A stretch of DNA of 64,000 bases from Mobula hypostoma (lineage: Eukaryota). Position 1 is the stretch's first letter; every line of letters starts with the position of its first letter. Below the pieces are notes generated by a model. The model saw only the letters and a list, made by a program, of their open reading frames with translations. It searched no databases and was not told the origin of the DNA. Made by a program: the position numbers and the translations under genes. Of this stretch, positions 2,600 to 62,204 are shown piece after piece. The stretch spans positions 34,598,001 to 34,662,000 of the forward strand of contig NC_086097.1 in assembly GCF_963921235.1 (NCBI RefSeq), in the 5' to 3' direction.

Positions 2600-3530
2600 T
2601 TAATTCCACACTCACCCCATCTTTCTGTTACTGTAATAGAGATAGAGTCCGTCTTGCCCTTACCTACCACCCCATCAGCCTCCACATCTGACATATTCTC
2701 CTCTGCAACTTCCGTCATCTCCAAAGGGACCCTATCACTAAATATACCTGTACCTCCCATCTCCAGGGACATATTCTCCTCTGCAACTTCTGTCATCTCC
2801 AAAGGGACCCTATCACTAAATATACCTGTACCTCCCATCTCCAGGGACTTATCCCTGCAACCTTCCAGGTTTGGCAACACTTCACCTGCAAATCTGCTGG
2901 GGTCCTCTATTGTGTCCAGTGCTCCCAATGCAATGCAGCTCTCTTCCACATTGGTGAGACCCATTGTAAATTGGGGGACAGCTTCGTCAAGCACTTCTGC
3001 GCCATCCGCCACAAGGGAGACTTCCCGTTGGCCAAACATTTTAATTCCCATTTATGTTCCAAAGTGTCGATCCATGGCCTCCTCTTATGCCAGAGTGGAG
3101 GAGCAACACCTTATATTCCATCTAGGTAGCCTCCAACCTGGCAGTCTGAATATCGATTTCTACCCTCGGTGAACAAATGACTTTTCACTTCTTCTCACCT
3201 GCCTATCCCTTCCCATTGGGCCCTCTCCTCCTTCCCTTTCTCTTATTCTCCACTCTCCTCTCCAACCAGATTCTTTCTTCTCCAGCCCTTTACCTTTCCC
3301 ACCCACCTGGCTTCACTTAGCACCTTCCAGTTAGCCTGTTTCCCCCATCCCTCATCTTTTTGTTCAGGCATCTTCCCCCCTCCCCCACCCTTCCTTCTCA
3401 GTCCTGAAGAAGGGTCTCAGCCCGAAATGTTGACTGTATATTCATTTCCATAGATGCCGTCTGACCTGCTGAGTTCCTCTAGCATTTTGTGTGTGTTGCT
3501 TTGGATTTCCAGCATTTGCAGAATTTCTCT
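2600..3530 (+). mobile_element. Decayed Penelope-like element 3' part (GIY-YIG region plus pLTR)
   Basis: DRVRLALTYHP and EEQHLIFHLGSLQP motifs, a polypyrimidine 3' UTR and a hammerhead motif at 3399-3436; homologous to 58594-60060. Confidence 0.88.
2690..2848 (+). repeat. 78-bp tandem duplication within the Penelope copy
   Basis: gacatattctcctctgcaactt...cctcccatctccagg occurs at 2690-2767 and 2768-2845, near identical. Confidence 0.95.
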
Positions 3531-3874
3531 TGAAAATAAATATATTATCAAAGTACATATGTCACTATATATTACCCCGTTACTTATTTTCTTGCAGGCA
3601 TTTACAGAAAAATAAAGAAATACAATTTATTAAAAACTATACATAAAAATGACAAGCAACATGTAAAAGAAGACAAATGTGCTAAATAAATACATAGATA
3701 AATAGATACATAATACTGAGAACTTGAGTTGTAGAGTCCTTGAAAGTGAGTTTGTAGGTTGTGGAAGCAACTCAGAATTGAGGTGAGTGAAGTTAACCAC
3801 ACCAGTTCAGGGGCCTAATAGTTGCTGCCATCTTCTCAAGGATTTTAATGTGGTGTGTAACGCTCTGCTAATTG

Positions 3875-4065
3875 AGACACAAGTGACTCAACAAAGAATC
3901 TCGGTGGGTCAGGCAGCATCTGTAGGGGAAAGAATTTGACATTTCAGGCCAAAACCTGCATCAGGACTGAAAGTCATCCTGAAACATAATCAGGTCCATC
4001 CCCCGCCTCATCCCCCAACACCCTACAGGTGCTGCTCGATCCTCTGATATCCTCCAGCAGATTTT
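3875..4065. mobile_element. Short inverted pair of Penelope pLTR fragments
   Basis: Minus-strand hammerhead remnant (3935-3970) followed by plus-strand ggtgctgctcgatcctctgatatcctccagcag pLTR sequence. Confidence 0.65.
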
Positions 4066-4894
4066 TTTTATTGCTGACCTTTCAGGTGGATTTAAAAATG
4101 TAAAATTTCCAGGTATTCTTTTAGAGTTCATGCAAATTACACCACCGAGTTTTCCATTGCTTTCACAAATGACGACAAAGACTCATTTGCTTTAGTGAAC
4201 ACTCAAACCAAATGAAACTTTGCATATGATTATATGTTTTAAAAAAACCTGATTTTCATGAGCAATGGAAGTTAGCTTTCACAATGTTTTAAGGATTCAG
4301 TTTGGCACGAACACAGAAAATTATACTGAAAAAGCTGAGGTACAATAGACAAGCAAGAAGCTGGCTCTCTCAGAAAATATCAGCAGAAAATTAGGCAGGG
4401 AAATAGAATTCTAGAGCAGAATAAAGTTCATAGTTGTTCTATATAAGAGTTGTTGAAGGTGGAAATTCCTGCTGTGTCTAGTACATTAAATTATCTTGCA
4501 ATAAAAGTGCAAAAATAACTTGCATGATTTTTCAAAGCTAAGTACAGCCTTTCAAAATCTCAATCCACAGTGAGGTGAAATGACTCTATAATTAAATTAA
4601 GTGCAAATTTAATCCATTCCTTTCCACCTTTTGCTTCTGTGTGAATTTAGTAAACACTGATAAATGGTACAGTTTCCACTGTGGTATCAATATTATTTTT
4701 TTCCTGTACTGTCGTTGCTTCTCTGAATATTTAGTGAAGTTTCCTTTACTCTGGCCTAGCGCCATGCTCCATTCTCAAACTGAACGGAACACTTAACGTG
4801 AAATTCTGCATTTCCCTTTAAATTTTATTCACTGAAATGCTGTACACTAAACAGACAATGAACTAGAAAGTAAGTTAGTATTAATTTCAAGAGG

Positions 4895-5507: not shown

Positions 5508-5589
5508 AGAATCAAACATTTCTAGAAGAAGCTATGGAATGTTGAACATGATTGATCGTGTTGTATATACTCGTGCACTACTCACTTTG

Positions 5590-7175: not shown

Positions 7176-7209
7176 TGGACTCACTTTCAAGGACTCTCAT
7201 CTCATGTTA

Positions 7210-8850
7210 TAGAGTCATAGAAAAGTACAACACAGAAGCAGGCCCTTGGCCTGTCTAGTCTGTGTTGAACCATTTAAACTGCCTACTCTCATCAACCTGC
7301 ACCGGGACCATAGCACTACGTGCCCCTACTATGTACCTATCCAAACTTTTCTTAAACATTGAAATCGAGCTCACAAGCATCACTTATGCCGGCCGCTCAT
7401 TCCATAGTCTCGCCACCCTTTGAGTGAAAAGAAGTTTCCCGTCATGTTCCCCTTAAACTTCTCACCTTTCACCCTCAACCCATTACCTCTGGTTGTAGTC
7501 CCACCCAACCTCACTGGAAAAAGTCTTCTTGCATTTACCCTATCGAGACCGCTCATAATTTTGTATACGTCTATCAAATCTCCTCTCAATCTTCTACATT
7601 CTAAGAAATAAAGTCCTAAGCTATTCAATATTTCCTTATAACTCATGTCCTCCAGACCCAGCAACATCCATGTAAATTTTCTCTATACTCTTTCAAATCT
7701 TATTTACATCTTTCCTATAGGTAGATGACCTCAACTGCACACAATACTCCAAATTAGTCCTCACCAACATCTTATACAACTTCAACATAACATCCCATCC
7801 CCTGTACTTTTTTCCATTAATGCTGCTTGGCCTGCTGAGTTCCTCCAAAATTTTGTGTGTATTTCCTGTACTCAATACATTGATTTATGAAGGCCACTAT
7901 GCCAAAAGCTTTCTTTACAACCCTTTCTACCTGTGACATCACTTTCAATAAGTTGCCTCTGACATCCCCCTCGTACCTACTTCCAAGCACCTTAAAACTA
8001 TGCCCCCTCGTGTTAGCCATTTCAGCCCTGGGAAAAAGCCTCTGGCTATCCACATGATCAATGCCTCTCATCATCTTATACACCACTATTAGGTCTCCTC
8101 TCATCCTCCGTCACTCAAAGGAGAAAAGGCCAAGTTCACTCAATCTATTCCCATAAGACATGCACTCCAATCCAAGAAACATCCTTGTAAATCACCTCTG
8201 CACTCTCTCTGTAGTATCCATCTTGTTAGGCCCTGGGGAATTATCCATCCTGATTTGCCTCAAGGTAACAAACACCTCCTCCTCTGCAATCTGTACAGGT
8301 TCCAAAAGTTGTTGCTGCTTTGCCTCACTTTGCCTCACTTCTATAGATCCTGTGTCCATCTCCTGAGTAAATGCAGATGCAAAAAAATAATTTTAAGATC
8401 TCTCCCCCATCTGTTTTAGCCCGCACATGGTTTACGATTCTGATCTTCCAGAGGACCAATTTTGTTCCTTGCAATCCTTTTGCTCTTAACGTATCTATGG
8501 AATCTCTTGGTATTCTCCTTGGCCTTGTTTGCTTAAGAAACCTCATGTCTTCTTTTAGCCATCCTGATTGCTTTCTTAATTGTTCTCGTGCATTTCTTAT
8601 ACACTATAAGCACCTAATTTGTTCCTATCTGCCTGTACCTCCTTTTTTCTCTTAACCAGGGATACAATATCTCTTGCAAACCAAGGTTACCCACACATTA
8701 TCTTTAACTTTTATTCTGTCAGGCATTTACAAGCTTTGTGCTCTGAAAACGTCACTTTTGAAGGCCTCCCACTTACCAAGTACACCTTGGCCAGAAAACA
8801 GCCTGTCCCAGTCTACATTTGCCATGTCATTTCTGATACCATCAAAATTG
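7210..8850 (-). mobile_element. Cluster of nested CR1 fragments with a short Penelope pLTR piece at about 7810-7860
   Basis: Several RGDLI.VYK.M.G.DRV segments and ORF2 remnants on the minus strand. Confidence 0.85.
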
Positions 8851-10078
8851 TTCTCGATAATTATACTTAATTATTTAATATTATTATTTACTTACATTTG
8901 CATAGTTTGTTGTCTTTTGCACACCGGTTGAACACCCAAGCTAGCATGGTCTTTCATTGAGTCTATTATGCTTATTATTCTATTATGGGTTTACTGTGAA
9001 TGCCCACATGAATCTCAGGGTTTTAAATAGTGACATATATTCACTTTGAACTTTAATGTTAGTATCGTGGAGATATTCCATTCCAGTACTACATTCTACC
9101 TTGTAGAGTGCAGAAAGGTTTTGGAGACCGAGGAGATGAGTCATTTACTGAAGATACCCAAATTATTGTAAGCATAGTATTTATTTGACTGTTCAGTTAA
9201 GTTTCTGATCAGTAGAGATCATGCAGACCATGCTGTGAGATACAACCATGGTAATGACATTGAACATCGGGGAAATGTGGTTAAACTCTCTTACAACAGG
9301 CAGTTAGTGGATGATGAAAACCACTTCGCACACAGAAAGCCCCAGCTAGATTATTGTTCATATCTTTCTGCAAATTGTTATGGGGGTAAACCATTTCTAT
9401 TGTAGAGCAACAGATTACTTGTTTTTTTTCAGTGATAGAGAATCAGAATTTCACAGACAAAGTGGATGCTTGGGATCTTTAATAGGTGGTACAGATATCA
9501 GAGCTGTCTTCTCAATAAACAGTGCAGTATTTTTTAAAAGCTTGCTTTTAAGGTGGAGGTGGGGTTTAGAGGCAATATGAGGGGCAAGATCTTTACACAG
9601 AGATTAGTAGGTACCTGGAACAGTGGAAGCAGGCATATTGGTGAAGTTTAAGAGGCTTTCAGATAGACACAAAATATGGAGGGAATGAAGTTATATGATA
9701 ATACACAGGAGAAGAAAATTTAGAATAAATCAGCATTAAGATCACACATCATGGGCTTACTACCCTGTCCAGTGTTGTACTGTTTTTGTTCTAAAGTGAT
9801 GTGTAGTGCTTGATCTTTAATTGTGACTTTCTTATGCATATGGCTTTTAATCAAAATATGGACCATCTGGTTGTTACACCAGAAGCTAGTTTAAATTGTT
9901 GCTGATTCGTGGTCTGAGCCAACAGGATACTTCACAACATTCTGTCACAGTTCATGTAAATTATAATGAGCTGTGAATGCTTGGCACAAAGGGAGTTTAT
10001 GTAAAATAGAGCTTAGTGAAAATAATTTGGGATTGGTTAGTTTGAAATAAAAAGAGATTAATGTTGTTTATCCCCCAG

Positions 10079-10217
10079 GTTATTCAATATTTGTAGTAAG
10101 AGGAGACCTACCAGAATGTGAAGCTGATGAATTACTGAAAAGGATGGCAGTGGTACAGCTAGAGAGACCAAAATTAATTGGAGAAGAGGCAAACCAACAA
10201 ACAGAAATTGGGCACAG
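10079..10217 (+). CDS. ATXN3: Ataxin-3 coding exon (human exon 7 equivalent; end of Josephin domain)
   Basis: Acceptor ccccag|GT, donor AG|gtactg. Translates (G)YSIFVVRGDLPECEADELLKRMAVVQLERPKLIGEEANQQTEIGH(R), matching human GYSIFVVKGDLPDCEADQLLQM...RPKLIGEE. Upstream exons were not found in the window. Confidence 0.97.
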
Positions 10218-10629
10218 GTACTGTGGATCTAAAGGCTAAAATTCTATTCCCTTTTGTAAAATAGCCTCAGAGATTATTTACCTGCTCTATGTTGCTTCTG
10301 GTCCTAAGGAAATATGTAATATTTTGGCAGTGATCCTAATTCTATTCGATTAGGAGTATTGGTGGTGATTGATTTAACACTGCTTATTTCCTTCATTTAT
10401 TTCCACAGAGATCAGAAATGTTCAAGATATGTGAATGCCTTTTGTGAAAAATAAACAGTAACCTAATTACTTAAAAAGACTAATTATTGTTGGGAAGGAA
10501 ATATCCTGTATTGTATTTACAGGCATGGAATATCTCTAAAGGAAATAAAGAATCAAACAGTAATGAAGGTTTATCTACATGTATTCACCAATGGCATGAT
10601 CTGACCAATTTTTTTGAAAATTTCTCAAG

Positions 10630-10802
10630 GTTACAGAGCAATGACTGGGAACAAGTGATTGATGTGAACAAATCAATTACAAATGTTTTGGATGATGAAG
10701 ACGATGAAAGTCTGCAGCGAGCATTGTCACTAAGCCGTCAACACATGGAGACGGAAGATGAAGAAGCAGATCTACGAAGAGCAATCCACCTCAGCATGCA
10801 AG
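10630..10802 (+). CDS. ATXN3: Ataxin-3 coding exon (exon 8 equivalent; UIM1 and UIM2)
   Basis: Acceptor tttctcaag|G, donor CAAG|gtaaag; phase-compatible with the previous exon. Encodes LQSNDWEQVIDVNKSITNVLDDEDDESLQRALSLSRQHMETEDEEADLRRAIHLSMQ(G). Confidence 0.97.
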
Positions 10803-11474
10803 GTAAAGGTTGGTGCTTTAATGAGGTACAACCAGAAGTATGACTTGACCAATTTAAAGCTACGTTCGGATCTTCTGTTCAGCTGGACAGTTTTAGTAGT
10901 TTCAGAATGGACTGCCATTGTTGTAACCTTCCCATCGTTGGAAACTTTCTGTCAGTTGTTTATAAATCCACACATAAAAATGTATATTTCTCAGTATTTA
11001 TTGCAAGGGACAAGCACATATAAGTAGTTCATGCTGATGCATTTCTGCAAGTAACCATAAACATACAAAGAGCATTTCTCCTAGAATTTAACGTAAGTGG
11101 TTACACTTTATACATTTCCTTTATCTTTCTTTTTTCCTTAAGCCCATCATCCCCACTGGGGCCTAGGCCGCCAACAGCAGTTCACCTGCGTCCTCTGTCT
11201 TGGACCAGTCTTTCAAGCTGTTCCCACCAAAGATCCTTCCTCTCCTGGGGACGAGGTCTTCGGAGCTCCTGTAGCTCTGGATGGGGTTGCTAGCCCCATG
11301 ACCAATATTTCTCCTTTCACAGCTGGGCTTGGGGCGGTCCATAGCAGAGCTTTCTTTTATCACATAACACCAAACTCTACGATCATATTGCACTGGAAAT
11401 CCGCTGTTTATTACAAAATGCCACTTCTACAGGCATACACGTGTTAGAAAACAGCATGTGGTCAAGAATTAGAC

Positions 11475-13010
11475 ACAGCCACCCCCTTCCCCCTCACCTG
11501 GACTCAGCTATTACCTGCCAGCTTGTTCTCCCCCACCTTCTTATTTTGGCTTCTTCCCCTTTCTTTTCCAGTCCTTAAGAAGAAGCTTAGCCTAAAATGT
11601 CTACTGTGTATATCACCTCCATAGATGCTACCTGAACCTGCTGAGTTCCTCCAGCAATTTCCTCAAAAATTGAAGTGAAAGGGGCTGGATCAGGTACACA
11701 AACATGAGAAATTCTGCAGGTGCTGGAAATCCAAGGCAACACACACAAGATGCTGGAGGAATTCAGCAGGCCAGGCAGCATCTCTGGAAATTAATTTGAC
11801 ATTTTGGAGTGAGACCCTTCTTCAGGACTGGAAAGGAAGGCAACAGAATACAAAGGTGGAGGGGAGGGGAAGGAGGACTAGTTAGAAGGTGAGAAGTGAA
11901 GCCAGGAGGCTAGGAAAGGTAAAGGGCTGGAGAAGAAGGAATCTGATAGGAGAGGAGAGTGGACCACAGGAGAATGGAAATGAGGAGACTGGGAGGAAGT
12001 GATAGGCAGGTGAGAAGAGGTAAGGGGCCAGAGTGGGGAATAGAAGAAGGGAGGGCAAGGGAAAATTTTCTTTACCAGAAAGAGGAATTGATATTCATGC
12101 CATCAGGTTGGAAGCTACCCAGACAGAATATTAGGTGTTGCTCCTTCACCCTCATCATGGAACAAGAGGAGACCATGGACCGACGTGTCGGTACAGGAAA
12201 GGGAATGCGAATTAAAATGTTTGGCGACTGGCAAGGTTCCCTTTGGATTATGGAGTGGAGGTGTTCAACGAAGCAATCCCCCAATTTACAACATGTCTCA
12301 CCAGTGTAGAGGAGGCTGCATCAGAAGCTCAGAACACAATACAGATGGCTGCAGTAGGTTCACAGGGCAAATGTTGCCCCACCTGGAAGGACTGTTTGGG
12401 GCCCCGAATGGAGGAGAGGAAGGAAGTGATTGGGAAGGTGTAGCTGTAGCATTTTTTCTGCTTGCAAGGATAAGTGCTGGGAAGGATGAATGGACAAATG
12501 AACAAGAGGACCTCTGCAGAAAGTGGAGAGAGGAGGGGAGATAAATATATATTTGGTGGTAGGAGCCCTTTGGAGATAGTGGAGTTCTCCAGAGTTGCTG
12601 AGGTCAGTGATGGTGTCAGAGACGGTTTTCGGATGGTCCAGAGTGGGGTCCTCTTCCAGGAGTAAGTCTGTGGAGGTGTCTGAGAGTTGCCACCTGGCCT
12701 AAGTATGGTAGAGGTCAATCCACCAGACGTCTGATGGTAAAGTCAGAATTAGTCTGGAGAGAGTGGAGGGCCGTGCGTTCTAAGGGAATCAGGTTCGAGG
12801 AGGAGAGAGGAGTGCTGAAGTCGAGCCGGTTGATCTCTTGTCAGCAATTTGAGATGAAAAGATCCAGAGCAGACAGTACCAGAGTGGGGTGTCCAAGAAG
12901 AGGAGGAGGGTTGGAGATAGGTGAAGGGGTCACCAGCGCATGGTGCAGAGCCTTTTGCATCAGTTCGGAGTAACTGACTTGCAAACTTAGTACGGACATC
13001 CTAATAGGAG
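11475..13010 (-). mobile_element. Decayed Penelope-like element with an inverted pLTR at its end
   Basis: Minus strand: GPKQSFQV, EQHLIFCLGSFQPDGMNI and RT remnants. Plus-strand pLTR fragment at about 11475-11660. Degenerate hammerheads at about 11569 (+) and 11796-11830 (-). Confidence 0.85.
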
Positions 13011-18500: not shown

Positions 18501-18519
18501 GTAGTTTTTCTTTTATTAT

Positions 18520-25608: not shown

Positions 25609-28600
25609 TAACGTTCTTGGTTGTTCACATTGGGCTAATGGCGAGGAAAACTGAACCAATGTTACAGATGGATTGGTCAGTCTGATCTGAAGGTCTAGAA
25701 TTCAGTACTGAGTCCCAAAGGATGCAATGTGCCCCAGTAGAACATGCTTAAATTGGGTTACAGACAGATAAGTCAAAGTGGGATGGAGAATTACTGTAAG
25801 CAAAAGCTAAAGAATAGAAAATGTATAATAAGAAATATTGGTGCTGAGCATGGTGGACAGTATATTGCTCAGTACACAGAGACAGAAGAAGTGTCTAACT
25901 GACATGGTAAGAAGAACGAGGGCAGTATTTGAATGTGTACTTGATCTGCAGAATGTATCTTAAGTAAAGTTGGTAAAGCCATTTATACAACGATTATGGC
26001 ATTATTTTTAAAGCTGGAGATAAAATACATGGGCACCAAAAATTATGTTGAATTTTCATTATTAAACTGAAGATATGCTAAACTCATTGGGAAAACCAAA
26101 TATATTACCAAGTAGTTGCAATGTAGACTCATAGAGCACTACAGCTCAGAAAAAGGGCCCCTGGCCCATCTAGTCTGTGCTGAACTATTATTCTGTCTAG
26201 TCCCATTGACTTGCACTTGGACCAAAGCCCTCCGTACCCCTCCCGTAGATATGCTTATCCAACAGTCTTGTAAATGTTGAAATCAAACCCACATCTACCA
26301 CTTCCACTGGAAGCTCATTCCACACTCTCGCAACCCTCTGAGTTTCACCACATTAAACACAAAAAGAAGCAGAAAGTTATTTCAAAATGACAGAAACTGA
26401 CATGTTTGTTCCTTTTTCGATGGCATATAATGCCCTTCCCCCACCACCTTAGAAGGAATCAACATTTTTCTAAATGTTGTACAACAAAAAAAGTTCTTCC
26501 TGTATCCTGTAATGAGTGCTCAGAAGCAATTCCTTCACATTTTCTGTTTTACAGTCACATTTTCTGTTTTACAGTGACAGTAATTGATGTCCCTCAAATG
26601 ATGTCTGTTTTGTATTGGTCTGTGTCACCTGGTTTTTTTCACCACAAGTGCCTTCTTTCACTTCCTGACATGAGCAAATTTGATACAAACTCAGGCTCTA
26701 ACTTGATGGATACATTTACTTTTCCACTTGAGGACCTCAGTAATGATAGCCTAAGAAAAACAAATTTACCTCCATTTTTTATTTTCATATATTAAGGCTA
26801 GTTACAATATCCAACAGTGAAAATTGTAATGTACGTCCATAATTTGCATAGTTCATTACCGTCTTTTGTGCCTATGCACAAATGCTAGAACTTCAGATTT
26901 CAATATACTTACTCGAGTTGCAAACCTACAGGAACTACTTTGCTTTCCAATTCATCTTTCGAATGGATTTACCTAACCAATCAAATTATTGTGTCACCTT
27001 AGGCCATTTACTGCAGCAAAGAAAGTCACAAAGGAAAGCTCAGGCTAGAGTAGTGTTCTCCTGTCCATGTGGTATTAATCTTGTAAATTATTTGTTTGCT
27101 CATTACTCAGCTTTGCTGTGATGTGTCAAGCAAGGTCTCTGGCCAAAAGAATGGGCAACAAAGCATTTTATGGGTTTTAAAAAGATGTGGAGCTTCAGTG
27201 CAATTTTTTTTATTCTGGATGAGTTTACGATTTAATTCTACCACCGCTTTCTACATCCCAGAATTAAGATTTTTTTTTAAGCAGAGTTTGCCATTGTGGA
27301 TATGCTGGTTATGAATTTACACTCGGAATTCTGTTTATTATTCGATGAAACTTGACAAGCACAGTACGATTATTCTCGGTAACACACACAAAATACTGGA
27401 GCATCTCAGTAGGCCAGGCAGCATCTATGGAAGAGAGTAAACAGTCGATGTTTCAGGCCGAGACATGATTATTCTCAAACTGTTTTTGTCCTTCAGCGGC
27501 ATCGCCTATTTCAGTTTCTGTAAACAAAAGGTGTAAAGTGTGACTGAGGTTTATAATTCAGGAATAGATTGAATGAACTAATTTTAATTGGACTGATAAG
27601 TAACAGTATTTAATGATCTTGTTTGTGTGACAATGTGAGCAGCAGTCCACAGAGGGAGAGGATAGTGATCCTAGGTTACATTACAAATAGACTACCTGGT
27701 CTTTTTCCACGTTATTGTGGGTATTCAACTACTTTTCAATCTCTGGTTTTAAAAAGGGGATGTATTTGAATCGTCCACAATTTCATCACGCACAATTGTT
27801 TTTCTATAATTACTGGAATACATCAAGATTGTCTGCTCTGTTGTCATGACAAAGTAACTAGCTGCACTACTCGACGAACTCAACAAGTCAAGCAATATCC
27901 TGAATTCACACAGTTTATTTTAATACTCTAGATTTTGTCATATGCAGACTCCTGTGTCTACAAAGTGATAGAATGTCTGCAGAAATATGAAACAAAGTCA
28001 CTTAACCTGTCTTGATGAAGGGTCTCAGCCCTAGCCATCGACTGTATTCCCCTCAATGCTGCCCAACTTGCTGAGTTCCTCCAGTACTTTGTGTGATTTT
28101 GAAAGTACCTGCATTTTTTGGGGGATTAACCCTTCATGGAGATTGTTCAGTATGGATTCTATGGTATTTACTTCACACTTGTAAATTTCAGTAAATTATT
28201 AGAGTATTTTTTGGAATTTCCTGATTGTACTTTGTGCTACTTCACAGACCAAGAAGAATCTAGTTTCAGTTCCTCATTTACTTACCCGTGATCTGAGCTG
28301 GGGCTGATGTTATGGTCCTCCAAATGGGAAAGTGAAAGAGCAGTCAGGTTGCGAACCTGGTCACCCTCTGTAGAAGTTCACATTTTGGATACAGAACTGC
28401 AATTGACAGTGCTGGTTTGATCATGTTTGCCACTTGCTACATGATAATTCAGTTCAGTCAATGTTTTCAGGAAGGAAGAATATGCATTATGACACATGTC
28501 AAGGACAATCTGCAATAAAGTAGCAGTCCCATGCAAGCACTGCAGTACGTGCTGCTCAGCAGGTGCATGAGTATGAGTCATTAGCTGTGGACTGTAATGC

Positions 28601-28894
28601 TAGCAATTTGGATTGCAGCAGCTCTTCAACAAATTTTCCAGCATAGTTTCCCTTGAAGTTTGCCTTCCTTGTTCGATGCAGCGCAAAGCAAGACTGTTTA
28701 GATCTGCTCATCACATCTATCAGCACATATAATCGACACACTCTGCAGGTGGGAATTTTACAAAGGAAGATGAAAACATACAAAATAAAAACAGTAGAAG
28801 GAAATGGGGGGGCGGAATCCACTTTATTGATTGATGAATATAATTGTAAACATGCTGGATATGTTTTAACAATATAATATTAATTTTATTTTAG

Positions 28895-29027
28895 GATTTG
28901 TACGAGGAGCAGAAAACTCAGAAGTGGCCACATCCCAAAATGAAACTACAGATACTTCAAGAACTATTGTAGCTGAAACTCCCACAGTGGAGGAACTCCG
29001 AAGACGGAGACAAGTGTACTTTGAGAG
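28895..29027 (+). CDS. ATXN3: Ataxin-3 coding exon (exon 9 equivalent; VCP-binding motif)
   Basis: Acceptor ttttag|GA, donor AG|gttag; phase 1 to 2. Encodes FVRGAENSEVATSQNETTDTSRTIVAETPTVEELRRRRQVYFE(R), compared with human SEELRKRREAYFEK. Confidence 0.93.
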
Positions 29028-29162
29028 GTTAGCAAACCATAAACTTGTACTGCTGCAGCTTTCAGTATGAGAAAGCAATTCTTAGACACTTCCTCATATT
29101 TACCAATTGAAGAGGACCCCTCTCTGGACCATCGGTCTCCAACTGCCTCCAGCACCATCGCC

Positions 29163-40128: not shown

Positions 40129-40587
40129 TATGGTTACTATTCTATAGATTTGTTGAGTTCATCCACGAGAAAATGAATCTCAGGCTTGTAAATGGTGACA
40201 TATATGTACCTTAAAAATAAAATTAACTTTGAACTTTCACTGACTTGGATTGACCACAGGTCTCTTTGCGTAAATTTCAAGTGTGTAAACAGAAAATGAG
40301 AAAGCATTGTTTCCAGCACCCTGATCACATGAAAATTCTCTATCAGGCCATGTTTGTATGACCATAATATAAAAGTTATTATTAAATAAATAAAACCATT
40401 CCCCAAGAATTACAATTCGCATTTTGGAGTTCATTGTTTACACTCATGACTTCATGCACATTAAAATAATAATATTGTTCCCAATAATATATTGCCACAG
40501 AGAAAATTAGTGACATTTAGGCATAGCAAGTAAAATTACAATGCAATTACTGTTGGTTTGATTTTGAATATCTGTTGTTTCTACCAG

Positions 40588-40658
40588 AAAAGAATTACAG
40601 CCGGAAAATTCAGATCATCCAGCAAAACAGAGTTGTGATGCACTAGAAGCAAATTCAG
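40588..40658 (+). CDS. ATXN3: Ataxin-3 coding exon (exon 10 equivalent; no polyQ)
   Basis: Acceptor tgttgtttctaccag|A, donor TCAG|gtccgt; 71 nt, phase 2 to 1, exactly bridging the flanking exons. Encodes KELQPENSDHPAKQSCDALEANS. Similarity to human is weak, so the call rests on phase and splice signals. Confidence 0.75.
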
Positions 40659-41416
40659 GTCCGTTTCCCAGTCTGGTCATGTTAATCTTATTGAATAAAC
40701 AGTACTACGTCTAAAATGTGTATGTTTCCTTATATGCTGCCTAACCATAACTATGTGTTTTGTGTTGATCGTAATCCTTTCTAATAACATCCTGTGCACA
40801 AGCACTAAATCAGCAGAGCTTTAGTTTTATTTCCTGTTCAGGGTGGGATGATTGTTTAAGTGATTCCCATCTCAAAGAATCTTCCATTCTTCATATTGCA
40901 GTGGTAGGTTGTATAAAATCTGATCTAATAGACGGGAAAAAAATTACTTATCTTTTTTTTGTAGAATTCTAATCCAATGTGTGGGTTAAAGGGAATGAAT
41001 TGCATGTGGCCAGATTACTGAGAATACTACTTACTTACTTCTAAAGACATAGAAAGAAGCTATTCAGCCCATTCGGCTAATGCTAGTTCCCGTCAGTTAG
41101 TGCTCCCTCTCCTTATTTTCCTTGCCCCTGCCACAACCTCTCTCCCACATACCCATCAACTGCCCTCTGATTTTATTTTGCTATTTGCCTACACAAAGCA
41201 GTAACTTAACGATAACCAAAGCAAGACACACAAAATGCTGGAGGAACTCAGCAGGCCAGGCAGCATCTATGGAAAAGAGTAAACAGTCGACGTTTCAGGC
41301 CGAGACCCTTCATCAGGGCAAACACGAGGAATTCTGCAGATGCTGGAAATTCAAGCAACACACATCAAAGTTGCTGGTGAATGCAGCAGGCCAGGCAGCA
41401 TCTCTAGGAAGAGGTA

Positions 41417-41454
41417 CAGTCGACGTTTCGGGCCGAAACCCTTCGTCAGGACTA
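41417..41454 (-). ncRNA. Minimal type-I hammerhead ribozyme motif (Penelope pLTR)
   Basis: Reverse complement reads TAGTC-CTGACGA-AGGGTTTCGGCCC-GAAACGTC-GACTG: helix I AGTC/GACT, core CUGANGA and GAAA, helix II GGGT/GCCC, loopless palindromic helix III ACGT, GUC cleavage triplet. Confidence 0.8.
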
Positions 41455-42108
41455 ACTGAAAGAAGAGCTAGTAAGAGATTTGAAAGTGGGAGGGGGAGAT
41501 CCGATATGATAGGAGAAGACAGGAGGGGGAGGGATGGAGCCAAGAACTGGACAGTTGATTGGCAAAAGGGATATGAGAGGATCATGGGACAGGAGGCCTA
41601 GGGAGAAAAAAGAGGGGGGGGGAGCCCAGAGGATGGGTAAGGGGTATAGTGAGAGTGGCCACACATTTTAATTCCACGTCTCATTCCCATTCTGATATGT
41701 CTATCCACGGCCTCCTCTACTGTAAAGATGAAGCCACACTCAGGTTGGAAGAACAACACCTTATATTTCGTCTTGGTAGCCTCCAACCTGATGGCATGAA
41801 CATCGACTTCTCTAACTTCCGCTAATGCCCCACCTCCCCCTCGTACCCCATCTGTTATTTATTTGTATACACACGGTCTTTTTCTCTCTCTGTCCCTCTC
41901 AGAATACCCCTTGCCCATCCCCTGGGTTTTCCCCCCCTCCCCCTTTTCTTTCTCCCTGGGCCTCCTGTCCCATGATCCTCTCATATCCCTTTTGCCAATC
42001 ACCTGTCCAGCTCTTGGCTCCATCCCTTCCCCTCCTGTCTTCTCCTATCATTTTGGATCTCCCCCTCCCCCTCCCACTTTCAAATCTCTTACTAGCTCTT
42101 CTTTCAGT

Positions 42109-42146
42109 TAGTCCTGACGAAGGTTCTCGGCCTGAAACGTCGACTG
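42109..42146 (+). ncRNA. Minimal type-I hammerhead ribozyme motif, sense to ATXN3
   Basis: TAGTC-CTGACGA-AGGTTCTCGGCCT-GAAACGTC-GACTG. Confidence 0.75.
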
Positions 42147-42716
42147 TACCTCTTCCTTGAGATGCTGCCTGGCCTGCTTTGTTCACCAGCAACTTTGATG
42201 TGTGTCCCTTCGTCAGGGACCTGTCTTGGCCCTAAACGTCAACTTTTACTCTGTTCCATAGATGCTGCCTGGCCTGCTGAGTTCCTCCAGCATTTTGTGT
42301 GCATTGTTTTGGATTTCCAGCATCTGCAGATTTTCTCGTATTTGTGACTTACGATTACCAGTTCCCTGCCAGCTCATCACAGGGAGATGCGGGTTGTTAA
42401 AGAGATAGCTTTGGTATTCAATCCAAGGCTATCTAATGGGATGAAAATATTAATACTCTCAATTAAAAGCAGTATCCTCATTAGAAAACCCAGGCAATCT
42501 TGAATAGCTAAGGGTTTATATTATGTTAGCTTTTTTAAGGGAAAGTATACAGAGTTGGTATCAATCAATCATAGTTTTAAGGAGAGGACTGCAAATATTG
42601 CCAATTATTTTAAAAATACAGAACCTGAAAAGAGTATTATTTTCTTGTGGGTATACTTCCTTCAATGAATTAAGACATGTAGAACCAACAAGTTCTTCTA
42701 TCTTTCTTATCTATAG

Positions 42717-42808
42717 CTAACGTGACTGAAGGAGAATTGCCTCAAGCAGATGTGTTGAAACCACTGGAAACTGGTGCCAATAATAATTCAAAAGGGGAAG
42801 GAAGTTAA
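42717..42808 (+). CDS. ATXN3: Ataxin-3 terminal coding exon (exon 11 equivalent; degenerate UIM3) with TAA stop
   Basis: Pyrimidine-rich acceptor ttcttctatctttcttatctatag|CT. Encodes (A)NVTEGELPQADVLKPLETGANNNSKGEGS*, colinear with human DAMSEEDMLQAAVTMSLETVRNDLKTEGKK*. Confidence 0.88.
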
Positions 42809-45590
42809 TTTGAGAATAAATACATTAGTAACAACTGTACTCCCATTTCTGATCTGCGTGAATTGTACTCCTCTTGTACATCAGCCACATAGAAAAATAT
42901 GCAGATGTTTTCAGAGACAGTAAAGATAATGTTCACTTGATGCTAATGCATTTTTTGTGGTTGTTGAATGGGATCATTTGCTGTACAGAACTACACGTTT
43001 TTGGTCTTCGATTGTAGCACCTTATCTGCTGAAAAACCTTCTTTATGCACATCCTAGTTAATTAAATTGCAGGGGAAGTGTGAAAATATTTTGCACCCAT
43101 CGATAAACATTTGTCTTTTGGAGAAAAAGGTAACTGGTCAAGCAGTTCATGGTTCAATTGTGCAACTGGACCTTGGAAGATAGAAAAATTGATAATGTTA
43201 AGTTCTTTGCTTTTTAAAACTATTATACATGTTTTATACCTTTTGCCTGGTACATTTCTGAAAATCATGTTCGTATAATTTTGGAGGTATCAAGAAATAT
43301 GATATGCAGAAAATGCTTGTGGTTTGAGGTTTTATCAATATTGAAAGCTTTTTGGATTGTTTATATTTGGGTATTGATCTTGTGCTGGCATTTAAATGCC
43401 TTTTAATTGCTCTAAAACAAATCACCTTCATGTTTACTGTGTTGTATTGAATTATGCAGGTTCTATTTATATGCTTGAATGTCTGTTTTGTCCATTTAAC
43501 TTTGACGGTCAAGTCTGGGAACAAATGAAGAATGTGGAATTACAGCAAATAAGACAAACTGTTGTGGAATAATTTAATCTGATGCCCATTTGGACTTCTG
43601 TTAAATAGTGCAGCTTCCTATCAGGTTTTAGACTGTTATATCTGAATAGATGTGCCTCTGTGCTTATTTCTGGCATTGCTCTGTTTTCCTATGATTGCAA
43701 AAATATGAACTCAGATTTGTTATCCATTGAAATGTCATGGTACTTATATTACAATATTAACGTACAAGGATCATGTGTTTGTCAACGTGGACCAAGATAA
43801 CATAATATAACTAGTTGCAAATTGATCTTTGCAAATGAGAGCAGTTATTTCTCCATAGTCTGCAAAATGCTGTAGCTTAGTAGTTGATTACTAGGTCCAA
43901 TGATAAGTGAATAAACAATGCTCAAGGAGGTTTTAAAATTGTATTCAATAAAACAGCTAACCAGGAATACTTGATCATGTAAATTCCTGGATTAGCATAA
44001 ATTAATTCATTTATTAATCATAGATTATACCTTCAGCCTGATGTACACTTGACTGCAAACTAAACTACTCTTAAAGCTCGTGGAGCAGCTAAAGTGAGCA
44101 ATGAATATTGCTTAGTTTTGTTGCCTATGTTCTCGGAATAATTCTGGTTAACTTGTAAAATATTTTTTTTGTTGAAAGTAACAACATAACTTTAAAAAGT
44201 GCAAAGTATTTGTTACTTTCCCTCATTGCTCTATCTTAGTCCAAAAATTTGAAGTTGATAGAATAGGGTTTATTAGGTACTGTCAGTCACTCATCACCAT
44301 TGTGTCAGTAACATTCCTCTCTGTTCTGGACTAAAGAGTATTATAAAGTGGTTATTGTGACATAGCAGTGGTTGGTGTCAGGATGGCAGGATGAAAGAGT
44401 AGAATTAACTGACTTTTATTATTTAAGTAGAAAGCACATCTTTTTAAGCAAGAGCATTTGGTAATGGATAAAAAAGGTGATTTTGTTTTAATGTCATCCC
44501 ATTGCCATCCTTCATCATGCATCATAAGGATTTGTTTGTAGGAATCCCATTCTCGCCTTGACTGAGATCAATTTATTCCTTGAAGTCCAGGAATACAGCA
44601 TGAACATTTAATGCCTTTCAGCATATCAAGCCTTGTGCTAAGACATTGATTTCTAAAATGAAAAAAGAATGCCACAGATCTTATTTTTAAAATCCAGCCA
44701 TTGCTCTATAGCTTAATTGAAGAGACTTCCACAGCTCCAGCTCAAATTTTAAGGTTCTCTCTCAACTAATTTATAAAGTCTGTTCATAATCTATTAAATC
44801 TTACTTCAACTATCTTAAACCTGAATGTGAGAAATGCAGAAGGGTCAGTTTCAGTTGTTTGGAAATACTTACTGTACCCCTGTTGGCTGGAGAGTGGTAC
44901 AACATTCGTCCCTCTTTATACTTGTAGTATCCAAATACGCTTTCTACAACTGATTACTGGCTTGACCTTCCGTGCTGTTAATTGGCCTTGATGTAGGAGC
45001 GGCCAGTTGACAACATCTAGGCTCATGTGAAGAGTAGTCTCTTGTGCAATGAAGCAGGATGTTCAGTGTCTGAGAGCGTTATCAGTTATAGTCGGTGTTT
45101 TTGAGAGGGAGGCTTGAATGGGAAGTGAGAAACAGAACTTGCTGGTGTTTTGGTTTCAGTGTGTTTTTAACAGTCTTCTTAGAATTACTAGCATTACCTG
45201 AAACAACTATAATTTCAATATTATTTTCTTTCTACATTTTTTTAAATGGAAATGAGTCATGAAACAGTTGCAGTGCCTCTGTTAGTTATATGTGCTGAAG
45301 TTTGGACTTCAATTTCTCCAAGTTCGCAGAGTTATCTGTAGAATCAAATTTCTATTTCAATGCAGGTTTTTTTTTAAAGATTAAGGCAAAATGGTAAAGA
45401 ATGTTAAATGAAATAATATCTTGCTGCCTTGTTTTATTTTGGCAAGGAGACAGGATGACAAAATATGGTTATCTGTGTTTTGCAAAGCTTTTTTTTTCCA
45501 TGTGCACACTGGAGATGAAGATTTGTTAGTCTCTAAATAGTATTCATATGGCTATGTATCCAATAAAACTACATTCTGGTTTCGGAATTA
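42809..45590 (+). other. ATXN3: Probable ATXN3 3' UTR / 3' flank with candidate poly(A) signals
   Basis: AT-rich and free of recognisable transposons in an otherwise repeat-saturated window. AATAAA at 42815, 43910, 43947 and 45562; the last is followed by GT-rich sequence. The true end is unknown. Confidence 0.55.
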
Positions 45591-46067: not shown

Positions 46068-46217
46068 GCTCAAACAACAGGAATTCTGTAGATGCTGGAA
46101 ATTCAAGCAACACATTAACTGTCCTGACGAAGGGCCTTGGCCTGAAACGTCAACTGTACCTCTTCCTAGAGATGCTGCCTGGCCTGCTGCGTTCACCAGC
46201 AACTTTGATGTGTGTTG
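46068..46217. mobile_element. Miniature Penelope insertion (inverted tip plus hammerhead pLTR)
   Basis: Flanked by cttataaaaaata at 46055-46067 and 46218-46230; hammerhead at about 46119-46156. Confidence 0.85.
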
Positions 46218-46571
46218 CTTATAAAAAATAACAATAGTTAAATAATACTATATTTACATTTTTTCTGATTCTGAATCCTTATAAAATGTTAGATATCATT
46301 ATCTAACACAAATTCAATACAATTATGTTTCAATTAATTAATATGCTGATGTTGACTCAAAAGATTGCAGATGTTGGAATGTGTGCACTGAGGGAATGGC
46401 ATCTATGGAGGGAATTTTTTTTTGGGGTTCAAGATCGTCGATCTGGGCTGACAGAGGGGAGAGCCAGGTAGAGGGGAGGGGTGGAACAAGAGTTGGCAAG
46501 AGATTAGTGGATGTTATCTGATTACAGATCATTCACAGTCCAAGTGAATAGTCTGTTAGGGCACAGTTAGT

Positions 46572-46950: not shown

Positions 46951-46954
46951 GGAG

Positions 46955-53195: not shown

Positions 53196-53196
53196 C

Positions 53197-53540: not shown

Positions 53541-54115
53541 TATTAATGATAATTCAACTTAGAAAAAGGAAAAGGTTGACACAAAAATATACCAGCCCCC
53601 AACTGTCCTCCATTTTGCTGATTTGGATGAACTACAATATACTTTGAATTTCAATCATAAATGTGACTGCATAGGGGAAAATTGCTTCACTCTGATGCAA
53701 GTAACATTTGCTGTTGCATTTTGGGTTTATTTATGGAATATATCCACAAGGTTTCCAATGTTGAATCTTTAGCTGTACCACTTAAACCTTCTGAAAATCC
53801 TTCCAAGCATGATCGAACTGAATGGATTAGAGGAAGAACTGAAAAGAACTTTGACAAAGGCTTATTGATGGCTTAAATATAATTTAGACATTTATTCTGT
53901 TTGCATGATGAACTTTTCACTGGCGTTTAGTCACACTAATACAGAGTTCCTATAAGGTTATCACATATATTTAATGTGCGTTACGCATAGTATGCAAGCT
54001 CCAAATCCTACAATTTACTTTGCATTTTTTAACATCACACCAAAGGACACAAGTATAAAATATTAAATTACGTAAAGTAGAACAAACCCTGAACAACTAA
54101 TCCGAGCTAACATCA

Positions 54116-54384
54116 CAAACACGAGGAATTCTGCAGATGCTGGAAATTCAAGCAACACACATCAAAGTTGCTGGTGAACGCAGCAGGCCAGGCAGCATCT
54201 CTAGGAAGAGGTACAGTCGACGTTTCAGGCCGAGACCCTTCGTCAGGACTAACTGAAGGAAGAGTGAGTAAGAGATTTGAAAGTGGGAGGGGGAGGGGGA
54301 AATCCAAAATGATAGGAGAAGACAGGAGGGGGAGGGATGGAGCCAAGAGCCGGGCAGGTGATTGGCAAAAGGGATATGAGAAGA
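54116..54384 (-). mobile_element. Solo young Penelope pLTR with hammerhead (54214-54251)
   Basis: Perfect 13-bp flanking duplication cgagctaacatca at 54103-54115 and 54385-54397; near identical to 41319-41580. Confidence 0.93.
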
Positions 54385-57300: not shown

Positions 57301-58593
57301 AGAGAAGCAATGGCTGGAGTTTCTGGGAGCAACTCAGAAAGCACAGGCTAAAGACATCCTAAAGAGAAATATTCTAAAGGCAGGCTGACACTACCATGAC
57401 GACAAGGAAAGTCACAGCTAAGATAAAAGCAAAAGAGAAGGCATATAATAGAGCAAAAATTAATAGGAAGTTGGAGAGTTGGAATGCTTTTAAAAACCAA
57501 CAGAAGACAACTAAAAAAAGCCATGGGGGGGGGGAATAGATGAAATATGAAGGAAAGCTAGCCAACAATATCAAAACGGATAGCAAAAGTTTTCAGATAT
57601 ATAAAGAGTAAAAGAGAAGCAAGAATAGATATTGAACCATTGGAAAATAATGCTGGAGAGGTAGTAATGGGGGACAATAAATGGAAGACAAAATGAATAT
57701 GTATTTTGCATCAGTCTTAACTGAGTGCTGGGGGCAGAAGTGAGTGCGGGTTCTATTACTAGGGAGAAGGTGCTTAGGAAATTGAAAGGTCTGAAAGTAG
57801 ATAAGTTGCCTAGACCAGATAACCTACACCCCAGGGTTCTAAAATGGGTTACTGAAGAGATTGTGGAGAGATCTTTCAAGAATCAATAGATTCTGGAATG
57901 GTTCTGGGGGATTGGAAAATTGCAATGTCACGCCACTCTTCAAGAAAGGAGCGAGGCGGGAGAAAGGAAATTATAGGCCAATTAGCTCAATGGTTGGGAA
58001 AATGTTGAAGTAAAGGATGTGGTTTCGGGGTACTTGAAGGCACATGATAAAATAGGCCAAATTCAGCATAGTTTCCTTCAGAGAAAATCTTACCTGACGA
58101 ATCTGTGGAATTCTTTGAGCAGGTTAGACAAATGAGAATCAATGGACGCTGTGTACTTGGATTTTCAGAAGGCCTTTGACAAGTTGCCACACATGAGGCT
58201 GATTAAATGGTAAGGGCCCATGATTCTAGCATAGACAGGGCATTGGTTGATTGGCACGAGGTAAAGAGTAGGAATAAAGGGAGCTTTTTCTGATTGGCTG
58301 CAGGTGACTAGTTTTGTTTCACATTGTAGATCAATGATCTCTATGAATGAACTGGTGGTTTAGTGGCGAAGTTTGCAGACAATACAACGATAGGTGAAGG
58401 GGCAGGTACTGTTGAGGAAGCAGGGAGGCTGCAAAATGATTGGATAGATTGGGAGAATGGGCAAATGAGTAGCAAATAGAATATAGAGTCAGGAAGTGTG
58501 AGGTCATGCACTTTGGTAGAAGGAATAAAAAAACAGACTATTTTCTAAATGGGGAGAAAATACAAAAATCAAAGATGGGAGTCTTTGTGCATA

Positions 58594-60060
58594 CAACATA
58601 CATCAAAGTTGCTGGTGAACGCAGCAGGCCAGGCAGCATCTATGGGAAGAAGCGCAGTCGACGTTTCAGGCCGAGACCCTTCGTCAGGACTAACTGAAGG
58701 AAGAGTGAGTAAGGGATTTGAAAGCTGGAGGGGGAGGGGGAGATGCAAAATGATAGGAGAAGACAGGAGGGGGAGGGATGGAGCCGAGAGCTGGACAGGT
58801 GATAGGCAGAAGGGGATACGAGAGGATCATGGGACAGGAGGTCCGGGAAGAAAGACGGGGGGGGGGGTGACCCAGAGGATGGGCAAGAGGTATATTCAGA
58901 GGGACAGAGGGAGAAAAAGGAGAGTGAGAGAAAGAATGTGTGCATTAAAAAGAGTAACAGATGGGGTACGAGGGGGAGGTGGGGCCTAGCGGAAGTTAGA
59001 GAAGTCAATGTTCATGCCATCAGGTTGGAGGCTACCCATACGGAATATAAGGTGTTGTTCCTCCAACCTGAGTGTGGCTTCATCTTTACAGTAGAGGAGG
59101 CCGTGGATAGACATGTCAGAATGGGAATGGGATGTGGAATTAAAATGTGTGGCCACTGGGAGATCCTGCTTTCTCTGGCGGACAGAGCGTAGATGTTCAG
59201 CAAAGCGGTCTCCCAGTCTGCGTCGGGTCTCACCAATATATAAAAGGCCACATCGGGAGCACCGGATGCAGTATATCACCCCAGTCGACTCACAGGTGAA
59301 GTGATGCCTCACCTGGAAGGACTGTTTGGGGCCCTGAATGGTGGTAAGGGAGGAAGTGTAAGGGCATGTGTAGCACTTGTTCCGCTTACACGGATAAGTG
59401 CCAGGAGGGAGATCAGTGGGGAGGGATGGGGGGGACGAATGGACAAGGGAGTTGTGTAGGGAGCGATCCCTGCGGAATGCAGAGAGAGGGGGGGAGGGAA
59501 AGATATGCTTAGTGGTGGGATCCCGTTGGAGGTGGCGGGAGTTACGGAGAATAATATGTTGGACCCGGAGGCTGGTGGGGTGGTAGGTGAGGACCAGGGG
59601 AACCCTATTCCTAGTGGGGTGGTGGGAGGATGGAGTGAGAGCAGATGTACGTGAAATGGGGGAGATGCGTTTAAGAGCAGAGTTGATAGTGGAGGAAGGG
59701 AAGCCCCTTTCTTTAAAAAATGAAGACATTTCCCTCGTCCTAGAATGAAAAGCCTCATCCTGAGAGCAGATGCGGCGGAGACGGAGGAATTGCGAGAAGG
59801 GGATGGCGTTTTTGCAAGAGACAGGGTGAGAAGAGGAATAGTCCAGATAGTTGTGAGAGTCAGTAGGCTTATAGTAGACATCAGTGGATAAGCTGTCTCC
59901 AGAGACAGAGACAGAAAGATCTAGAAAGGGGAGGGAGGTGTCAGAAATGGACCAGGTAAACTTGAGGGCAGGGTGAAAGTTGGAGGCAAAGTTAATAAAG
60001 TCAACGAGTTCTGCATGCGTGCAGGAAGCAGCGCCAATGCAGTCGTCGATGTAGCGATGT
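58594..60060 (-). mobile_element. Young 5'-truncated Penelope-like element (Neptune-like linker)
   Basis: 14-bp duplication agtctttgtgcata at 58580-58593 and 60061-60074; open RT-GIY-YIG frame; hammerhead at 58655-58692. Confidence 0.96.
58986..60056 (-). CDS. Penelope RT C-terminal half plus GIY-YIG endonuclease (5'-truncated, uninterrupted 356 codons)
   Basis: RYIDDCIG...LPFLDL...VYYKPTDSHNYLDYSSSHP...CKRNKCYTC...VIYCIRCSRCGLLYIGETRRRLGDRFAEH...LQPDGMNIDFSNFR*. Confidence 0.92.
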   Translation of the reverse strand, partial: RYIDDCIGAASCTHAELVDFINFASNFHPALKFTWSISDTSLPFLDLSVSVSGDSLSTDVYYKPTDSHNYLDYSSSHPVSCKNAIPFSQFLRLRRICSQDEAFHSRTREMSSFFKERGFPSSTINSALKRISPISRTSALTPSSHHPTRNRVPLVLTYHPTSLRVQHIILRNSRHLQRDPTTKHIFPSPPLSAFRRDRSLHNSLVHSSPPSLPTDLPPGTYPCKRNKCYTCPYTSSLTTIQGPKQSFQVRHHFTCESTGVIYCIRCSRCGLLYIGETRRRLGDRFAEHLRSVRQRKQDLPVATHFNSTSHSHSDMSIHGLLYCKDEATLRLEEQHLIFRMGSLQPDGMNIDFSNFR

Positions 60061-62198: not shown

Positions 62199-62204
62199 GC
62201 TCTT

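Follow-up and report, generated by a model that had tools for sequence, protein, structure and literature searches.

Minimal hammerhead motifs in and around ATXN3 of Mobula hypostoma as parts of an abundant Penelope-like element

We analysed a 64,000-nt stretch of the ray Mobula hypostoma (GCF_963921235.1, contig NC_086097.1, positions 34,598,001 to 34,662,000; hereafter the window), which holds the last five coding exons of the ataxin-3 gene ATXN3 and repeated copies of a 38-nt motif that can be drawn as a hammerhead ribozyme. The motif is very probably the minimal hammerhead ribozyme (min-HHR) in the pseudo-long terminal repeat (pLTR) of a recently and massively amplified, endonuclease-containing (EN+) Penelope-like element (PLE) of the Neptune/Nematis type, and the copies in ATXN3 would be passengers. 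The genome contains 36,060 copies of the exact motif 34-mer (17,985 and 18,075 by strand), and a control gave none. A sequence-only reading of the window had listed 12 sites and proposed that the sense copies pair and cut the ATXN3 pre-mRNA. The motif is present at all 12 sites, on the strand given (three coordinates were 1-3 nt off: the 5' ends of the motif are at 3969 (-), 11830 (-), and 28007 (+)), and the proposal of cleavage is not supported, as discussed below.

The element that carries the motif

The youngest copy in the window links the motif to an open reading frame (ORF). The hammerhead at 58655 lies 293 nt past the stop of the open frame 58986-60086 on the minus strand, and a GIY-YIG domain scores above the Pfam cut-off in the window frame 58989-60086 (-). 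The genome contains 245,111 candidate matches to this ORF; the 112 that were scored are all 98-100% identical to it. The full-length ORF (P0121) encodes 1,043 amino acids, with a reverse transcriptase (RT) domain (RVT_1, 534-696, E = 3.8e-5), a C-terminal GIY-YIG domain (946-1020, E = 0.001), the motifs DKG and LRYIDD, and a CX4CxxC linker (CKRNKCYTC, 910-918). A linker of the form CX2-5CxxC marks the Neptune and Nematis clades (10.1101/2021.04.23.441226; here and below, papers are cited for those parts of them that were available to us), so the linker points to the Neptune/Nematis type. The nearest homologues did not supply a clade name: the 10 closest relatives were eight unnamed proteins, one hypothetical protein, and one uncharacterized stingray protein.

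The structure of the element was taken from 15 loci around matches to the window ORF. The full unit is about 3.5 kb and has the form pLTR(HHR)-ORF-pLTR(HHR): at four of the 15 loci the motif occurs on both sides of the ORF, as direct repeats 3,513-3,516 nt apart, and the ORF starts about 55 nt after the motif. Divergent inverted pairs were seen at six of these loci, and in the window at 41319-42205. Among 43 young copies, the 3' end falls at +90 to +107 from the motif start in 17 and at +133 to +142 in 21, which makes two groups about 38 nt apart. (Three of the remaining copies continue into the ORF, and two were scored as ending with the motif owing to nearby mismatches.) The tail after the hammerhead is about 60 or 95 nt. 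The two groups match the optional 30-40 bp tail of PLEs (10.1101/2021.04.23.441226; PMC11167929), which has been explained by two internal start sites for reverse transcription (PMC11167929).

The copies show how the element spreads. Every insertion keeps the 3' end of the element (hammerhead plus tail) from reverse transcription, and most insertions are 5'-truncated, often with an inverted second arm. The hammerhead is thus the part of the element that is copied most, found every few kb. From the literature, we expect that in the tandem transcript of the element two copies would swap strands, with ACGU pairing to ACGU as helix III, and that the element RNA would be cut after GUC, probably aided by the element's protein. 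For the host copies we propose that they decay neutrally, with CpG sites changing first, so that the ACGT palindrome would be lost early, and that the copies in ATXN3 are spliced out with their introns, with no meaningful cutting of the pre-mRNA.

Motif copies and ATXN3 in the window

A motif profile was trained on eight window copies and searched in the window and in 134 kb (the window plus 50 kb before and 20 kb after it). The window gave 15 matches and the 134 kb gave 30; there were none in five of five shuffles or in the reversed sequence. Beyond the 12 sites, the window matches are at 7802-7848 (tail only), 27397-27464 (-), and 42223-42293 (+). The copies do range from intact to decayed, as had been said. 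Both core boxes (CUGANGA and GAAA) are kept in eight of the 12 (3399, 33867, 41284, 41417, 42109, 46119, 54214, and 58655); core, both stems, and ACGU-C are all intact in only three (41417, 54214, and 58655), and all three are antisense to ATXN3. By age, the window copies are young (93-99% identity), intermediate (87%), or old (about 70% in the ORF). The copies are:

2611..3532, plus strand: old-subfamily Penelope-like 3' fragment with ORF-end remnant, 3' untranslated region (UTR), hammerhead 3399-3436 (core intact, helix III AUGU, triplet GUU), and tail; intron 6, sense
3900..3970, minus strand: decayed hammerhead copy with A9 changed, a 1-nt gap, and the 3' strand of stem I lost
7802..7863, plus strand: tail-only fragment of the same Penelope-like element, absent from the sequence-only reading
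11485..11660, plus strand: old sense copy in intron 8; both core boxes of its hammerhead (11569-11606) are broken
11697..12932, minus strand: old-subfamily 3' fragment, hammerhead 11793-11830 with G12 changed and the 3' strand of stem I lost
27378..27465, minus strand: copy that starts within helix II and has no core box 1, likewise absent from that reading
28007..28099, plus strand: decayed copy with both core boxes broken; intron 8, sense
32088..34001, plus strand: old-subfamily 3' fragment with about 70% identity to the young ORF and hammerhead 33867-33904 (core intact, helix III AUGU, pair 1.1-2.1 beside the cut broken); intron 9, sense
41216..41655, minus strand: antisense arm of the intron-10 complex, with tandem hammerheads 41417-41454 (fully intact, G10.1-C11.1) and 41284-41321 (5' strand of stem I incomplete)
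41654..42205, plus strand: sense arm of the intron-10 complex, at 87% identity with the youngest copies; it has the last 172 nt of the ORF, 3' UTR, hammerhead 42109-42146 (a single helix II mismatch; predicted cut after the C at 42141, the position given in the sequence-only reading), and short tail
42206..42347, plus strand: rearranged older copy with the 5' half of the motif inverted, core broken, and long tail; it lengthens the intron-10 inverted repeat to about 450 bp
46068..46217, plus strand: short recent insertion with inverted tail 46073-46112, hammerhead 46119-46156 (stem I broken), and short tail
54113..54384, minus strand: young copy, truncated at the 5' end, with long tail and a perfect hammerhead (54214-54251); downstream of ATXN3, antisense
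58594..60057, minus strand: youngest copy, 99% identical to full-length elements, with the 3' part of the ORF for RT plus GIY-YIG (stop at 58986), 3' UTR, perfect hammerhead 58655-58692, and short tail

The complex at 41216-42347 has a young inverted insertion with parts of a different copy of this element on either side, one of them inverted in its 5' half; the young insertion looks as though it had gone into an older copy. Among the contigs listed, none spans this complex. The insertion with the hammerhead at 46119 is 150 nt long and has 13-bp AT-rich target-site duplications (46055-46067 and 46218-46230), and a contig of run X19, which differs from the window by about 5%, has the empty site. 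Given this absence and the duplication, the insertion is recent. The hammerheads at 54214-54251 and 58655-58692 are the only pair of perfect copies on the same strand of the window (minus strand, 4.4 kb apart); a transcript spanning both would be dimer-competent in cis. Several young short copies (46119 and 41284 in the window, and L032:8940 and L022:687 at two other loci) begin 2-5 nt inside helix I, upstream of the cut site, and these starts may mark an RT stop, a transcript start, or a splice acceptor. An apparent pile-up of 5' boundaries at the motif edge is partly an artefact and was set aside, as old copies extend upstream in diverged UTR.

The best matches to the ataxin-3 exons are shark and ray proteins. 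By homologue mapping, the gene has 11 coding exons, all on the plus strand; they begin 48 kb before the window and end with the stop at 42808. Five of them are in the window:

10078..10218, plus strand: ATXN3 coding exon 7
10628..10804, plus strand: ATXN3 coding exon 8, with two motifs like the ubiquitin-interacting motif (UIM)
28894..29028, plus strand: ATXN3 coding exon 9
40586..40658, plus strand: ATXN3 coding exon 10, followed by intron 10 (40659-42716, GT..AG)
42717..45567, plus strand: last coding exon of ATXN3 (stop ends at 42808) and 3' UTR to the AATAAA at 45562-45567

Contigs of two sequencing runs (RNA by guess) enter the window exactly where the last exon has its acceptor (42715), and last-exon contigs reach 45497 (run X1) or, in two pieces, 45554 (run X5). 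In X1, again with its RNA status guessed, the last-exon contig has a depth of 97.8, versus 3-11 for intron-10 contigs. A splice joint into the last exon was not among the 15 contig joints listed (6,839 others lie beyond these). One isoform, P0007, skips the main last exon and uses an alternative one at 52097-52162, which would make the copy at 46119 intronic. Its second exon (43.8-43.5 kb before the window) is unusual as well, being of low complexity, and is missing from the other seven mapped homologues; both exons may be annotation artefacts. The mapped exons after the UIM region (28894-29028, 40586-40658, and 42717-42808) contain no polyglutamine run.

The window also holds many fragments of another abundant family, one that resembles long interspersed elements (1222-1599, 4845-5517, 29111-31936, 35779-38496, 48807-51180, 56538-58573, and 60123-63206), with endonuclease- and RT-like frames; we take this family to be CR1/L2-like. 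The frame 20952-21500 has a Pfam ALKBH8_N match, and the end of the frame 23418-23837 presumably resembles a Tigger/pogo-type helix-turn-helix.

The sense copies at 3399, 33867, and 42109 had been placed in the ATXN3 pre-mRNA on the condition that upstream exons exist. These exons do exist, and the copies lie in introns 6, 9, and 10, respectively. Overall, the copies at 3399, 11569, 28007, 33867, and 42109 are sense and intronic, and those at 46119, 54214, and 58655 are past the main poly(A) signal. Across the 93.6-kb ATXN3 unit we saw one exact 34-mer (0.97 expected) and, among 23 profile matches, 14 sense and nine antisense, which in this small sample gives no sign of avoidance. The copy at 42109 is within an inverted repeat (41216-41655 versus 41896-42312, 82% identity over 452 nt) whose antisense arm is transcribed first. 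In the predicted fold of 41200-42360, the bases of this copy pair with the antisense arm (mean probability of pairing outside the motif 0.94) and the probability of stem I is 0.00. Thus, the copy at 42109 is predicted to be locked in a duplex of about 450 bp.

Folding, decay, and alternative explanations

Hammerhead positions are given in the standard numbering. This numbering agrees with that of PMC4209133. The perfect copy has UAGUC as the 5' strand of helix I, the core CUGACGA, an unpaired A, a helix II of 4 bp with a 4-nt loop, GAAA, C-G-U-C, and GACUG as the 3' strand of helix I; its helix III consists of A15.1-C-G-U16.1 only. As a drawing, the type-I hammerhead with a loopless ACGU proposed from the sequence stands, and so does the point that a single copy is unable to form helix III from this palindrome. 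The predicted minimum-energy fold, however, is a different one: in the perfect 38-mer, the core (G5-G8) pairs with the cleavage triplet (−11.0 kcal/mol, versus −7.0 for the open, hammerhead-like fold). A C at N7, as in the young motif at 58655-58692, makes the core complementary to the triplet. This inactive rod is favoured by 4 kcal/mol in the young form, and older copies with A or U at N7 are without this lock. Folding z-scores of five isolated copies (−1.44 to +0.45) were not significant. Joining two perfect copies into a double hammerhead gives −11.5 kcal/mol, versus −22.0 for two monomers, and for all 15 pairs of copies that were modelled the double hammerhead is predicted to lie 7.9-21.3 kcal/mol above the separate monomers (10.5 for two perfect copies; the values for 42109 are overstated, as one register of helix II was scored). 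A search with hammerhead models, which had been suggested as a check, returned no hammerhead model among seven Rfam matches at E ≤ 5; we would expect this because the motif lacks helix III.

The decay of inserted copies does not single out the catalytic core. When N7 and 11.1 are left free, 45,476 genomic copies are intact over the 34 nt, or 9,416 more, and part of the change at N7 is CpG decay; freeing any of four other sites adds about 200 copies each. Single-site variants number 234 at core A6, 215 at core U4, 175 at the bulged A, and 220 at the loop U, for 449 core versus 395 non-core variants, so the core is not spared in inserted copies. For covariation we aligned 30 distinct 38-mers (29 copies with 1-12 mismatches, and one perfect copy) from 87 matches, omitting the other 34 perfect copies and 23 that were partial or more decayed. 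In the 29 non-identical copies, interior variability is highest at N7, at 11.1, and at CpG positions including 15.2 (eight changed) and 16.2 (seven changed). The bulged A is invariant in 30 of 30 rows, ACGU is present in the young form, and the 10.1-11.1 pair is G-U in 16 rows and G-C in 12; the wobble is found in the majority young form. The covariation score was matched by 65 of 500 shuffles, and none of five measures was clearly above shuffles (33-157 of 500). Excess conservation or covariation, without which the sequence-only reading would itself have been given up, was therefore not seen among inserted copies. (Position-wise decay was scored in five count-only pattern searches and in about 0.3 Mb of loci, some of which had been picked for their young ORFs.) Between subfamilies, identity is 73-87% in the motif, 75-81% in the tail, 62-67% in the upstream UTR, and 71-73% at the ORF end. 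The differences in the motif are at sites that a hammerhead tolerates (C/U at 2.5, N7, and C/U at 11.1) and the core boxes are unchanged, which fits selection on the motif in active masters, with the tail kept about equally well.

Several points weigh against our reading. The full-protein scores for RVT_1 and GIY-YIG are below the Pfam cut-offs, and although the element is by its sequence features EN+ Penelope-like and of the Neptune/Nematis type, its clade rests on one motif and not on a tree. The folding is an equilibrium nearest-neighbour model that leaves aside tertiary contacts and proteins; despite these limits, its energetics agree with the low activity in vitro reported in PMC4209133 and the dependence on protein in PMC11167929. 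Neutral decay of inserted copies is uninformative about cutting by fresh copies, and a single gene cannot reveal a genome-wide strand bias. Finally, a perfect sense copy, outside the view of the sequence-only reading, is in intron 3 (L031:7687-7724, 12.3 kb before the window), and a near-intact sense copy, partly covered by an inverted arm, is in intron 1 (L028:5710-5747). The intron-3 copy is part of a 1,087-nt insertion that is 97.8% identical to the young element and has no antisense arm within 1.5 kb, and judging from these features it is the best candidate substrate for cleavage of the host pre-mRNA. Both copies have a predicted stem I probability of 0.00 in long context, and they are 32 kb apart.

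That the sense copies in ATXN3 pair in cis or in trans as double hammerheads, cut the pre-mRNA, and affect ATXN3 output is a proposal to which we give hardly any credence. It would draw on the sense copies with intact core boxes in introns 1, 3, 6, 9, and 10, and trans partners could be plentiful given the 45,476 intact copies in the genome. Also, dimeric min-HHR constructs cleaved weakly in vitro (PMC4209133), and in Xenopus retrozymes, which are under-represented in introns, one of nine dimers cleaved strongly (10.64898/2026.07.22.740005, a preprint). But of the three copies for which pairing had been proposed, those at 3399 and 33867 lack the ACGU palindrome and that at 42109 is in the predicted duplex, and the copies are in different introns, 8-54 kb apart; intact sense copies are likewise 32 and 54 kb apart in different introns. 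The predicted double hammerhead is unfavourable for all 15 pairs, and sense copies are not depleted in ATXN3 (14 of 23). Furthermore, the hammerhead of an Anolis PLE failed to cut when protein was absent, and none of the RNA-seq reads had an end at its site (PMC11167929). Cleavage licensed by protein, which was shown in vitro for that element (PAc; PMC11167929), raises another scenario: by analogy, expression of this still-active element might, through its protein, activate latent intronic ribozymes in trans across the host transcriptome, and intron 3 of ATXN3 would be cut co-transcriptionally. With about 45,000 intact copies, a perfect, unshielded sense copy like that of intron 3 must be present in thousands of host introns. 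We consider this scenario very improbable. If it were true, intron copies cut on demand by the element's protein would be a new route for transposon action on host pre-mRNA, and inverted arms such as those around 42109 would mark a class of tolerated, self-silenced insertions.

It is also conceivable, but in our view unlikely, that the motif has ceased to work as a ribozyme, in the active master too, and persists at the junction of pLTR and ORF as a signal for protein binding, splicing, or reverse transcription. In the dominant young form, the 10.1-11.1 pair is G-U and not G-C, and a C at N7 lets the core pair with the cleavage triplet, and conservation between subfamilies is not specific to the core because the tail is kept about as well as the motif, both above the upstream UTR. 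Mutating the hammerhead left insertion in vitro unimpaired (PMC11167929). Also, a branch-point-like word, a pyrimidine run, and an AG that ends exactly at helix I are present (L016:6647-6695; window 42064-42112); within a host intron, a sense copy could serve as a cryptic splice acceptor. An acceptor-type signal has likewise been reported for the Penelope intron of D. virilis, and some PLEs have a spliceosomal intron in the pLTR; we saw no spliced RNA of the present element. On the other hand, the subfamily differences sit where a hammerhead tolerates them, and the core boxes stayed unchanged while the ORF end and the UTR drifted, which speaks against this reading. Quite improbable, in turn, is an effect of the intron-10 complex on ATXN3 without catalysis, by ADAR editing of the duplex or by a shifted choice between the main last exon and that at 52097-52162. 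The predicted duplex takes up 55% of the 2,058-nt intron (−781 kcal/mol), and isoform P0007 does replace the main last exon. However, in X1 the contig for the main last exon and UTR has its depth of 97.8 and the bin with 52097 has 0.5 (RNA is a guess for this run, and exons cannot be ranked by depth). X19 and X21 also have an excess of A>G differences, so that editing is not shown, and inverted PLE arms are common genome-wide. A domesticated intronic ribozyme was also considered for the ATXN3 copies and is not supported, as core and helices are not better kept than neutral among inserted copies (449 versus 395 variants; covariation 65 of 500). Nothing that we found points to a regulatory role in ATXN3, and we prefer the reading of the copies as passengers of an amplified PLE.

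Comparison with known systems

The pairing of min-HHRs with PLEs has been described before: Cervera and De la Pena (2014, PMC4209133) describe min-HHRs in the pLTRs of metazoan PLEs together with their loopless palindrome and a model of cleavage as dimers, and the pairing is reviewed in PMC6765202 and PMC6155905. Such motifs are reported from Xena, Poseidon, and Neptune elements in fishes, in the coelacanth (about 4,000 copies), and in Xenopus (about 9,000) (PMC4209133), and Neptune and Poseidon occur in the vertebrate sample of 10.64898/2026.07.22.740005. We found no literature description for sharks or rays; one searched supplement file of PMC4209133 has no shark or ray terms, and the dimer-cleavage paper of Lunse et al. 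and supplement file 1 of PMC4209133 may list such genomes. What is new here is a very large further example, in a lineage for which we found no direct description. Its value is statistical: with tens of thousands of identical young copies and intact ORFs, cutting by PLE hammerheads in vivo becomes testable, through strand bias in introns and RNA ends.

The motif shares with the min-HHRs of PMC4209133 the type-I form, a 5-bp helix I, the unpaired base (A9/10.1), the palindrome at 15.2-16.2, and the lack of loop 3. The context is shared as well: the motif lies in both flanking repeats, which are separated by about 3 kb, most copies are single and truncated, some form close pairs in opposite orientation, and cleavage is proposed to occur as dimers. 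In contrast, helix II, which has 7-8 bp in the Schistosoma families described, is 4 bp long here, G10.1-U11.1 is found in the majority form, and the copy number is higher (the 36,060 identical 34-mers), with a uniformity of sequence like that of the D. virilis case (PMC4209133). PAc, a Poseidon element of Anolis carolinensis (Frangieh et al. 2024, PMC11167929), also has its hammerhead at the pLTR/ORF junction, two classes of 3' end that define a tail inside the ORF start, and an AT-rich target (compare the duplication at 46055/46218). It differs in that Poseidon has no linker of the CX4CxxC kind and the ORF of PAc starts within the motif. The Neptune and Nematis elements (Craig et al., 10.1101/2021.04.23.441226) share with the present one the C-terminal GIY-YIG domain, the CX2-5CxxC linker, DKG, the hammerhead in the pLTR, partial tandems, an inverted 5'-truncated copy, and a tail of 30-40 bp on one end.

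Non-LTR retrozymes, reported from one chondrichthyan genome (10.64898/2026.07.22.740005), have a type-I hammerhead related to those of PLE pLTRs. They are head-to-tail arrays with a hammerhead in each unit and no ORF, and we rejected them as a source of the motif: none of the three tandem-repeat rows of the window holds it, and the copies continue into the PLE ORF. Finally, the intronic hammerheads of amniotes (RECK, CTCL, and DTNB; PMC6155905) and the HDV-like ribozyme in an intron of CPEB3 are, like the sense copies in ATXN3, retroelement-derived ribozymes in sense orientation within introns. Those ribozymes are single and conserved across species, whereas the copies in the ATXN3 region belong to a family of 10^4-10^5 copies, have no helix III of their own, and are either 87-98% identical to active elements or decayed.

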